From Candidatus Babeliales bacterium (GTDB taxonomy: Bacteria; Babelota; Babeliae; Babelales; JABCYS01), in assembly GCA_016929235.1 (NCBI GenBank), contig JAFGJD010000004.1, positions 128,866 through 171,163 of the forward strand: a stretch of DNA of 42,298 nt, read 5' to 3'. This document shows positions 39,686 through 42,298 of this stretch, in pieces. A program made the position numbers. Each line of letters starts with the position of its first letter. Position 1 is the first letter of the stretch.

Positions 39686-42298
39686 GCTGCTCCACCCCGC
39701 GTCATTTCAATCATTAGTGCTATTGAGTGTAGGTTAAATAAGAGCTTTGTCAACGAAGGCTAAGAGCGGGTTGGCTCTTTCTGAGCTGTCTAGTATAACG
39801 ATTGCCGATGCAATGGTGCGACTGTGTGTGAGGCTGATAGATATGGTAGGAGATCCAAGCTTCCTATAATAGGAATCTAAGATAGTCATACGTGCTTGAC
39901 CGTGGTGATCGTGGTGTACGTTGCTCATCTTACACAGATGCAGAAACGAAATTGAAGCAACAGTATTAGCTGCTTTAAAAAGTGCTTCTTTCGCTGCGAA
40001 TCTTACTGCAAATCGCTCAGCTGAAGTGGTTTGGTATTGGAGACAATAGTCGATTTCCTCTTTCGAGAAAATACGAGCAAGTTGTTTACGTTTATACGTG
40101 TGCCACTTTTCAAAGCGTTCGATTTCTACTGTGTCTAAACCTAGCCCAATGATCACAGGTAACCTTTTGATAAGCGTTTAATTGTAAATACACTTTAATA
40201 AAATAGTACTCAAATCAAAAGACAATCCTGAAGATTAGCTGGTTTTTAAATCGCAGCACATACAATTTGAGAAGTATGATTGAAGTATCTCGTAGGAATG
40301 TCTCTAAGGAGTCCAGATGCACGGTGTTACTACTCTCAGGATGATGACAGTTTTGGTGCTACTTAGTTTTTCACGAGATGCTTTAGCTCAGTATATTTGG
40401 GTGCAAGAGCGTACGAGGCGCTTTAATTATTTGACAGAGCGTTATGAGGCACGAGTCGTGGACCGGACGGAGCCTCATCCAAGTGTTCTTACAGAGCCGG
40501 GGGGGACAGAAGCGGGTCTTAAGTTTTTCTACCTTATATCGTGTGTTAGTGTACTTGCTTGTTGTTATAAGGGAGCGGTTGCCTGGATATCTTGTTTAGC
40601 CGGAAGAGCATACAATGCATGTGAACTTTGTACTATTCCCTTCTGCTGCTGTTTATGTTGTTGTCTTCTTTGTAGACATGAAAAATGCCAAAAATGTTGC
40701 GAAAGACTTCAAAATTCTTCAAGTGGAGAAGAGCGACTTTTGGACCATGGAGTATCACCACAGGTGTCGGATGTGTAATAGTGTGACCATTTTCCAAAGT
40801 GATATTCAGAGCCATATTGTGTTTTAGGGTCGTTTCTATCGATGGACTCTGAATGATTATAGTCTTTTGATCACTGGTACTTTTTCAAAATTTGCATACA
40901 CTAATTGGCCTAATTATCAGGAGTGTATATTCATCGGATTGTTCTCGAAAAGGATGTATTGTATGAGGTTGGGAACATGGTCCTCTTTTTGTAGCGCCTT
41001 GCTTTTTTCACTTTCACTCCATGCTGCAGTGAAAATTTCGGGTGATGGAACTGATACAAGTTTTACGTTCACCATAGGATCTCATGCCTATGATCTTGTG
41101 GGAGATCTCTTTTATATTGGAGCAGGAACAGCTGTCACTGGTAACACGTATGCCATTGCACAAGCTCCATCAAAAACAAACGATGGCGACCCTGGTTTTT
41201 TTTCGCCAATTACTCCTGCGACAGGAACTGTGAATGGGGTGAATGGTCAAGTTAATCCATTGTATGCGCAGAAAATCCCATATTTAGGGCTTTCTACTTA
41301 TAGGCCATATAGACCGTTTGCCGTTACGGCTAGTGCACCTAGACAAGTGCATTTTATGAGCGCTATCTCAACGAATGCTTCGGAAGCAGAGTTGCTTTCA
41401 ACTCCAATAGTTAGTGATGCCGGAGGAAATGAGACTGATGGTATTGTGGCATTATGTGCGGGACATTACGGAACAACTAATAACGAAAATCAATATTGTT
41501 TTGTAGCAGTGAAGCCTAACGGTGGAAGTTTTGGAGAGGCAGATGGGGGTATTGCCGCAATCAAGCTTTCGACAACATATCTCGATGTGCTGAATGCGAA
41601 TACAGGCATATCACAAGATAATATTGCGCGCGAACTAGATACAACTGCGACTGTTCTTAGAATTTCTGAAGATCTTTCATCAATACAAGCTAATACAGTT
41701 GATATGCATTTTAATACTGATTTGCAGAGACTGTATGTTGCCTTACAAGTCACTGGTAGCACTAAGTCGACAGCTGGTGTGCGCGCAGTGACTGTGGGTC
41801 GTATGAATAATGATATTCTTACATTCGATCCAATTGGACTTGATGCGGTATTTGCAAATGAGGACAAGATTGTTGGAGGGATAGGATCGAGCGCTCAGGT
41901 ATCTATACATAAAGTGAGGACGTTAAAAACATCTACGCATTTGCACTACTTGATTATAGTTGGTGGAAATGGTGCGCCGTCAGCAACAGGGAATACGGTA
42001 TATGCATTGCCGCTTGTTAATAAAAAGCCTGCTGGTATTGGGACGACTGATACTGCACTGGCCGAGGCACTGACAAATCCAGAACACGGAACGCTTGCAT
42101 TGAATTCAAGCGATATTACTGAGAAATATGCCATGAACGGCGTTTTTGTTGATCGTGGATTTACTACAACGGTTCAAAATGCTTCAGACATGTTGACTAC
42201 GACGAGTACTGCGGCGCAAGTTGGTGGTGGCGCATTGCCGTTGGCCGCAAGTCAAACGGTTTCTGATATTGTTGCTCGTCGAGATATAGTGATGGTGA

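Follow-up and report, generated by a model that had tools for sequence, protein, structure and literature searches.

The window (the whole stretch of 42,298 nucleotides analysed here) comes from a 0.81 Mb genome of Candidatus Babeliales that is 99% complete (hereafter G000). Its right-hand end carries the beginning of g193, which encodes a putatively secreted protein and is followed, on the same contig (C2), by the barrel gene g194, whose start overlaps the g193 stop by 8 nt (Table 1). The ATG at position 40963 was preferred over the TTG at 40867 as the start of g193 on the evidence of the N-termini of its orthologues, which have similar leaders. A Sec-type leader was recognized by eye in g194 too, and among 109 paired propeller proteins 3 show a lipobox-like pattern, none of them convincing by eye. 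The C-terminal residue of g194 is a phenylalanine, as in all paired barrels of the same gene arrangement (81/81; module A, see below). The promoter and terminator scans remained at chance level (11 vs. 16.0 expected and 6 vs. 5.3 expected, respectively). In agreement with the preliminary description of this locus, g193 and g194 have no Pfam match at E ≤ 1 and no credible NCBIfam match; a search of the PDB sequences with both proteins returned nothing at E ≤ 10. The genome encodes a type II secretion system, of which the window contains gspC, a gspL/pilM-like gene and three genes for secretins.

Table 1. Features of the g193-g194 locus, in window and contig (C2) coordinates.
Feature	Window position	Contig position	Strand	Remarks
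AAGGA RBS-like motif	40950..40954		+	8 nt before the g193 ATG; read from sequence
g193 ORF	starts at 40963 (ATG)	C2:169828-172776	+	982 aa; runs past the window end
Sec-type signal peptide of g193	40963..41025		+	21 aa, A-x-A-like end, without lipobox; by eye
First 424 mature residues of g193	41026..42298		+	BP1 blades 1-5 and start of blade 6; AF2 secondary structure
Remainder of BP1 and putative barrel-binding propeller BP2		C2:171164-172776	+	outside the window
g194 barrel gene		C2:172769-174076	+	435 aa; wholly outside the window
gspF-like gene		C2:175139-176359	+	context; named from sequence, not from a family scan

The g193 protein is well modelled (pLDDT 91.2, pTM 0.93) and is built of beta-propellers, as had been described. 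The "giant" propeller of that description, however, resolves into 14 blades (our own count of strands) arranged as two ordinary seven-bladed propellers, namely BP1 (residues 1-499, mature numbering) and BP2 (residues ~496-961). Solved seven-bladed propellers align to model residues 1-498 (Z 23.2, rmsd 3.6 Å, 300 residues aligned) and to residues 496-961 (Z 22-23), and a single giant ring was discarded because each half matches seven-bladed propellers. The full-length model superposes poorly on solved structures (rmsd 18-24 Å, Foldseek TM 0.15-0.25), and the two-propeller arrangement has no close match among the structures listed. BP1 and BP2 share no profile similarity (hhalign 0.25%), which argues against a recent duplication. 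The chain ends with the last blade of BP2, its C-terminus is fixed across the family (glutamate is the last residue in 63/81 module-A and 17/28 module-B proteins), and Pfam detects no CTD in g193.

Among the invariant columns of g193, Gly, Trp, Pro, Tyr and Asp residues in turns predominate. By eye, neither a conserved His/Cys/Ser nor a pair of acids suggestive of an enzyme was apparent, though g193 may still have an enzymatic role. The Thr/Ser/Gly/Asn share of g193 (37%) is the highest among the 335 ORFs of at least 300 aa, and several orthologues possess 10-15 cysteines. The ESM Atlas gave no feature match ≥0.9 for g193, of which its own model is poor (pLDDT 0.44); PorZ-type propellers are among the weak look-alikes (0.86, below the bar). 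The propeller family comprises 1229 representatives at E ≤ 0.001 (1005 at E ≤ 1e-30) and occurs in 118 of the 121 genomes sampled. This "phylum" sample covers one order, and the 20 propeller loci with labels are assigned to TM6/Dependentiae/Babeliales (5), "bacterium" (10) and "Pseudomonadota" (5, a submitter label), the 1229 profile matches carrying no names, so that a restriction to Babelota is not proven.

Turning to g194, the model of its 406 mature residues is of good quality (pLDDT 95.5, pTM 0.91, from a 114-row alignment). It has 12 long strands (DSSP), the first of them preceded by about 24 mature residues, and two of its loops, L1 (42-98) and L2 (145-178), are large and helical. The best Foldseek match is again FapF (E 1.3e-12), followed by the COG4313 channel Pput2725 (PDB 4rl8, E 2.6e-9). 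In the VIA comparison, g194 superposes on 4rl8 with Z 25.0 and rmsd 2.5 Å over 260/267 residues, plug included, and on FapF (5o65) with Z 24.1 and rmsd 2.4 Å over 259 residues; the next structural family, at 18.9, is that of autotransporter barrels (Z 17-19). The 4rl8 superposition spans model residues 11-406 vs. 4rl8 residues 2-268, which includes the N-terminal lumen plug. The number of strands and the presence of a plug, both left open in the preliminary description, are thereby provided by the model.

The Asp (loop 2), Pro-Thr-Gly and Asn (loop 3) cluster of COG4313 and FapF proteins is found in the g194 family: D186, P218 and G234 are invariant, and T219 and G220 are kept in at least 90% of the 114 sequences (consensus GNDG), at positions that match the Asp92, Pro119-Thr-Gly and Asn130 cluster reported for Pput2725 in the text available of PMC4493636. 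The plug and lumen of the barrel are conserved too. The Pfam family PF13557 has no match in G000 and a single one, below threshold, among the 114 members (E 2.8e-4). Two structure rows of the ESM Atlas (rows 5-6) are named COG4313 (TM 0.76 and 0.65). Judged by its modelled fold and its motif, g194 belongs to the COG4313/FapF superfamily, outside the strict Pfam family PF13557. Pfam finds no POTRA or Omp85 domain in g194; BamA and another Omp85 protein are encoded by genes of their own. A pattern scan started from g194 alone yielded no relatives, and those homologues of g194 that bear a name come from Candidatus Dependentiae or Babeliales.

Eight barrel paralogues had been reported; all eight have counterparts here of corresponding size and grouping, but G000 encodes 9 to 11. 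The ninth (C9:1594-2994) matches the barrel profile at E 3.9e-12, and two more probable members (C2:12614-14365 and C2:262757-264319), which share a GxGD...PT motif, make up a third group. The link between groups 1 and 2 was reproduced by hhalign with shallower alignments (94-95% probability, E 1e-7 to 2e-8). Group 3 is connected to group 2 (92% and 78% in the two directions) and hardly to group 1 (only 0.7-11%, control pairs giving <1%). G000 thus possesses four group-1, five group-2 and two probable group-3 barrels, the folded model covering g194 among them. Group 1 is present in 121/121 genomes, group 2 in 31/31 and group 3 in 30/31. In place of the "1-6 copies" announced earlier, each genome yields 2-8 group-1 and 2-14 group-2 matches, these being matches rather than exact copy numbers. 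The family is the largest outer-membrane family seen in G000, where 8 to 10 of its 9 to 11 members stand without an adjoining propeller and beside the group-2 barrels no gene for a large partner came to light.

The barrel had been said always to lie directly downstream of the propeller. When a propeller match was sought upstream of the best barrel, on the same strand and within 4 kb, it was found in at least 112 of the 121 genomes, among the matches listed. In the other nine, the genes are adjacent on inspection in three (G015, G120 and, as a second copy, G018), lie at contig ends in two (G064, G065), are separated in two (G042, G098) and lack an adjacent propeller in the last two (G009, G013), so that strict adjacency fails in four genomes. 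G013 has only a weak propeller fragment (E 3e-5) at a contig end, while in G009 and G029, both of the genus g9, two further profiles detected no propeller and barrel A is kept. The 20 named propeller loci all have a barrel within 1 kb downstream (20/20). The median propeller-barrel gap is 18-27 bp, the 109 complete pairs all consist of separate ORFs, and no fused protein was detected among 7997 long candidates, which is weak evidence. A gspF gene lies within 10 kb downstream in 53 of the 76 genomes with both genes on one contig (44 genomes with the genes on different contigs and one without a match were left out).

In addition to this propeller-then-barrel arrangement (module A), we observed a second one at the grpE/ssb locus (whose flanking genes were identified by eye), where the barrel comes first (module B). 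Of 16 loci selected by the position of the propeller alone, 15 show this opposite order; 10 further module-B loci were seen in windows chosen with the barrel position known. G076 carries two whole pairs in tandem, and in G049, G055, G081 and G087 a single barrel is accompanied by two or three propellers. A module-B barrel without propeller occurs in G000, where it has two PTG motifs, as FapF does, and in G012, G017 and G030. The A and B barrels form separate clades (SH-aLRT 98 and 98, in a quick tree with long branches), in which the lone B barrels fall among the paired ones, and therefore a loss of the propeller is suggested. Sequence identity across the modules amounts to 20% (barrel), 19% (BP2) and 28% (BP1), vs. 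31% for both propellers within module A; as far as these sequences tell, BP2 is as diverged between modules as the barrel. The propeller proteins reach 1389-1854 aa, with BP1 repeated in the family f16, whereas the paired barrels remain constant (408-474 aa).

Because its divergence tracks that of the barrel, BP2 was chosen for complex prediction, which covered this propeller only. Three runs with g194 scored 0.82, 0.77 and 0.82, vs. 0.13 for the best of three controls (comprising no non-cognate propeller or barrel). The mark used is passed by 116/157 solved complexes and 2/215 mismatched pairs, counts that apply here only approximately, since own alignments were used. The runs share at least 89% of their contacts, with partner pLDDT of at least 77. 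The barrel contacts (residues 67-95, 149-158 and 278-280) all fall in loops on the side of the PTG loop; in FapF this side forms the extracellular rim, according to the part of PMC5557850 consulted. Those of BP2 are drawn from all seven blades, and we read the predicted contact surface as the face around the central pocket.

The 25 closest BP2-barrel residue pairs covary in an 81-row paired alignment (mean z 0.56 vs. -0.11 ± 0.16, reached in 0/5000 draws); a second control gave 0.01 ± 0.16 (p 0.002) and a third at most 0.32 in 12 neighbour-swapped pairings. This signal is small, with 1 of the 30 top inter-chain pairs in the interface, and comes from the same alignments as the model. The interface residues are variable on both sides. 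An unguided search for the binding domain by covariation gave noise (top z 5.0 vs. 3.5-4.0 with permuted rows), confounded by phylogeny. The docked pose may owe something to solved propeller-on-barrel complexes such as BtuBG. Overall, g193 and g194 very probably dock physically, as judged from the predicted complex. The preliminary description had left open how g193 meets g194, and the model supports a docking from outside.

From these observations we propose, as an even chance, that g194 is a barrel anchor for the surface protein g193 and that surface display is the main function of the pair. The g194 protein would be a very divergent outer-membrane barrel of the COG4313/FapF type dedicated to g193, both proteins being presumably exported by Sec. 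A peg made of the helical extracellular loops L1 and L2 and part of L4 is predicted to sit on the pocket face of BP2 and, from the topology, would hold the non-lipidated double propeller on the cell surface. BP1, which is kept in both module types, would then be the likely host-binding or coat-forming head. We favour the anchoring of a host-facing protein because the propellers vary in size and in their arrays while the barrel is constant, and because g193 is rich in Thr/Ser/Gly/Asn and T9SS offers precedents, the barrels PorP/SprF (PMC9143113, text available in part) and PorQ with its partner PorZ (PMC8545088, likewise) being described as anchors of cognate surface proteins. Most barrels of G000 have no propeller beside them, and the genus g9, in which none was detected, keeps barrel A, which counts against anchoring as the sole role. 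Since lone barrels exist and the plug and lumen are conserved, the barrel probably has a job of its own besides anchoring.

The passage of g193 across the outer membrane may take place by type II secretion, on which our opinion is evenly divided; a crossing through its own barrel in the manner of FapF is possible but rather doubtful, and one aided by BAM/TAM is less probable still. A broader and speculative extension, which we hold to be unlikely, is that COG4313/FapF barrels were turned into an export-and-display system proper to Babeliales. In such a system barrel subfamilies might thread or capture cognate folded passengers and lock them by the helical loop peg, with neither lipid anchor, CTD tag nor POTRA domain, and the resulting coat might stand in for an LPS surface and determine into which protist the bacterium enters. 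If true, this would be a class of secretion or anchoring not yet described.

The pair could instead serve uptake, an alternative that we regard as possible though clearly less probable than anchoring. The barrel would be a channel of the COG4313 type through which hydrophobic compounds of the host (fatty acids, sphingolipids, sterols or the like) are taken up, and g193 a lid on the outside by which the substrate is captured or extracted, a barrel loop in the BP2 pocket playing, just as tentatively, the part of the BtuB loop EL8 in BtuG. It is worth noting that the nearest structure is the COG4313 channel (Z 25.0), that the conserved cluster which its authors tie to a proposed lateral exit is kept (PMC4493636, in the part available), and that a barrel loop of apo BtuB2G2 fills the central pocket of a seven-bladed propeller lid (PMC10404256, in the part available). 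In G000 a ketoacyl synthase was not detected, an enzyme present in 14/14 control genomes, and the use of host lipids has been proposed for Chromulinavorax (PMC6561590, in the part available); 9-11 barrels, many of them without partner, would fit several substrates. A lid of this kind agrees less well with the modelled contacts, which involve only L1, L2 and L4, so that BP2 may sit beside the pore, and with the lack of conservation of the pocket contacts, which a fixed ligand should conserve. Furthermore, known lids are lipoproteins on 22-stranded TonB-dependent transporters, and no lipid-processing gene adjoins the pair in the loci read, the flanks having been scanned unsystematically. Somewhat less probable than the lid is a self-contained two-gene secretion, which overlaps with our anchor proposal and differs from it in the export route: g194 would thread the unfolded g193 through its lumen after movement of the plug, as FapF does with FapC, and g193 would fold outside and stay bound. 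The near tie of FapF (Z 24.1) with 4rl8, with the autotransporter barrels coming next (Z 17-19), speaks for it, as do the doubled PTG motif of the module-B barrel of G000, the order of module A (passenger then barrel, with the 8-nt overlap) and the fixed, Glu-ending C-terminus of the propeller protein. This C-terminus is explained by the last propeller strand, however, and the coiled coil of FapF is absent; the 10-15 cysteines of several orthologues suggest folding before export, a type II system is available (three secretins in the window, gspF near in 53/76), and the absence of fused forms among the 7997 candidates weighs weakly in the same direction.

We consider it improbable that the barrels are general porins and that the module compensates for the missing LPS machinery. 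The size of the family and the absence of Lpx/Lpt from G000 would fit; LpxC, LptD and LptF/G were indeed not found in this 99% complete genome, as had been reported. In addition, LpxC is present in two of the three genomes without propeller match (in the third the barrel lies at the end of a contig), and the propeller may be needed more where LPS is absent. Yet a plugged 12-stranded barrel, a poor solute channel, lends no support to the proposal that the general outer-membrane channels come from this family: for the similarly plugged Pput2725, only glycine passed clearly and a role as a channel for hydrophilic solutes was rejected (PMC4493636, in the part available). Other candidates exist, namely one OprB-type match, in a 192-aa ORF, and an alginate-export-like protein of 719 aa, which ends in Phe, is present in 21/21 genomes and shows weak PF13372 (alginate-export) matches in 4 of 16 members; from its sequence the latter appears to be a better porin candidate than the plugged barrels. 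The implied link to the loss of LPS is weak as well. LpxC occurs in 16 of the 121 genomes, 14 of these 16 carry the propeller, and the largest arrays belong to an LpxC-bearing family. A replacement of Lpt by the module was discarded, as LpxC-bearing lineages carry it too, and since the propeller occurs in 14 of these 16 genomes the module is most likely older than the loss of LPS. The least probable explanation, in our opinion very unlikely, is that the two genes merely share a conserved envelope region, which runs from a murJ-like gene through propeller and barrel to the gsp operon, and that their products do not bind each other. Synteny is strong throughout the order, gspF often being near too, two genomes separate the genes and many barrels are alone. 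Nevertheless, the pairing is found again at another locus with the gene order inverted, whole pairs have been duplicated, the median distance between the two genes is 18-27 bp, and the complex test was passed.

The Babeliales are obligate parasites of protists with an outer membrane described as degenerate (PMC4776705), and in the available portions of PMC4776705 and PMC6561590 the envelope is discussed in general terms. In the literature searched (subscription papers and supplements being outside its scope) we found no paper on proteins of the g193/g194 type and no surface protein of Babeliales that is named, and PMC12172432 contains none of five envelope terms. The gene tables of PMC4776705 or PMC6561590 may list the pair as hypothetical proteins. 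What is new is a proposed system of a barrel plus a surface partner built on a barrel fold for which we found no such use in print. The pair has its propeller in 118/121 genomes, two ancient modules and a predicted docking at the level of residues. This almost universal gene pair of the Babeliales (Dependentiae/TM6) offers a testable lead on surface display in these parasites. If right, it would represent a third use (anchor or lid base) of a fold known from the uptake of hydrophobic compounds and the export of amyloid, and the first candidate for host recognition or host-lipid capture in the phylum.

Compared with known systems, g194 lacks both hallmarks of type V secretion, namely an Omp85/POTRA barrel or a fused passenger. 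With the COG4313 channels (Pput2725, 4rl8; SphA; TcpY; PF13557) it shares 13% identity, below Pfam detection, and it differs from them in its length (406 mature residues vs. 270-320), its large helical L1 and L2 loops and its 960-residue partner; a degradation operon was not seen nearby. FapF (5o65) has the same barrel, plug position and PTG motif (doubled in the module-B barrel of G000), and in both cases the neighbour is a secreted protein. FapF, however, has an N-terminal coiled coil, where g194 has only the ~24 residues before strand 1, and its partner is an amyloid subunit, whereas that of g194 is a folded double propeller.

Similarly to what is modelled here, BtuB-BtuG has a seven-bladed propeller on the extracellular loops with a barrel loop in the central pocket (PMC10404256, in the part available). 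BtuB is a 22-stranded TonB-dependent barrel, whereas g194 has 12 strands, as a result of which the pair falls outside BtuBG/SusCD, and BtuG is a single-propeller lipoprotein, whereas g193 is a non-lipidated double propeller (lipobox pattern in 3/109 relatives). One MotA/ExbB-family gene, which may belong to a Ton or a Tol system, is present in the genome. In T9SS, PorQ holds PorZ and PorP/SprF holds type B cargo, in each case a barrel with its cognate surface protein (available text of PMC8545088 and PMC9143113), and PorZ has two seven-bladed propellers, like g193 (PMC8545088). T9SS cargo ends in a CTD beta-sandwich, which g193 lacks, its predicted binding being through a propeller face, and the T9SS barrels are of another family, with no sequence similarity found. 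The principle of T9SS, a barrel that anchors its cognate surface protein, may apply here too, as the gene pairing observed and the predicted complex suggest.

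The table lists further features around the propeller gene g193 and its downstream barrel gene g194 and elsewhere in the genome and in relatives. In family f16, the propellers are 1356-1854 aa long and contain two or three repeats of the N-terminal propeller BP1, which are clear in L051 and L114. Their C-terminal propeller BP2 is degenerate, and the barrels of this family are divergent. The ORF that immediately precedes g193 has no family match.

Locations of the features discussed (C2, C3 and C6, contigs of the source genome; L numbers, loci)
Feature	Location	Strand	Remark
Secretin gene 1 of 3	window 932-3241
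gspL/pilM-like gene	window 3797-5251
Secretin gene 2 of 3	window 5248-7560
gspC	window 7575-8717
mlaE and adjoining ABC ATPase gene	window 10784-12340
Exported-looking gene, 1343 aa	window 15808-19839	minus
Exported-looking gene, 521 aa	window 19836-21401	minus
Exported-looking gene, 460 aa	window 21410-22792	minus
Secretin gene 3 of 3	window 25686-27047
tRNA-Met gene	window 39625-39701	minus
Cys-rich ORF, 153 aa	window 40317-40778	plus	immediately 5' of g193
Group-3 barrel	C2:12614-14365 (L067, L201)
719-aa protein	C2:123800-125959 (L076, L214)		C-terminal Phe
545-aa gene	C2:179700-181337		last of pseudopilin operon, downstream of g193-g194
Exported-looking gene, ~160 aa	C3:56075-56563 (L072)		convergent with module-B locus
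Two tandem group-2 barrels	C3:72832-76652 (L075)		cysteine-rich
OprB match	C6:21075-21380 (L213)		in 192-aa ORF, longer ORF before it
Family f16 propeller	L057:4338-8507
Family f16 propeller	L051:4926-8993
Family f16 propeller	L114:3591-9155

Across its locus in this genome and the loci L202-L212, the barrel of the probable group 3 mostly has an exported-looking gene of ~190-410 aa after it, with which it possibly forms a further barrel-partner pair, and it is usually divergent from a nucleoside-kinase-like gene (a neighbor named by eye). Group-2 barrels form arrays of at least four in relatives. The convergence of the ~160-aa gene on the module-B locus (barrel then propeller; barrel alone in this genome) occurs in many genomes, with the propeller present or absent.

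Regarding porins, the 719-aa protein occurs in 21 of 21 genomes, and 4 of 16 members have weak alginate-export matches. We regard it as a candidate for the main porin. The OprB-matching ORF is possibly a split or shortened gene.

In the window, the three adjoining exported-looking genes of the minus strand have no Pfam match. As judged by eye, the 1343-aa and 521-aa proteins both combine a beta-rich C-terminal part with a hydrophobic hairpin and a segment that resembles a coiled coil, and on these features they could be a membrane-inserting pair. As for type II secretion, GspD N0 domains are present in two of the three window secretin genes; PMC4776705 reports two gspD copies per genome.
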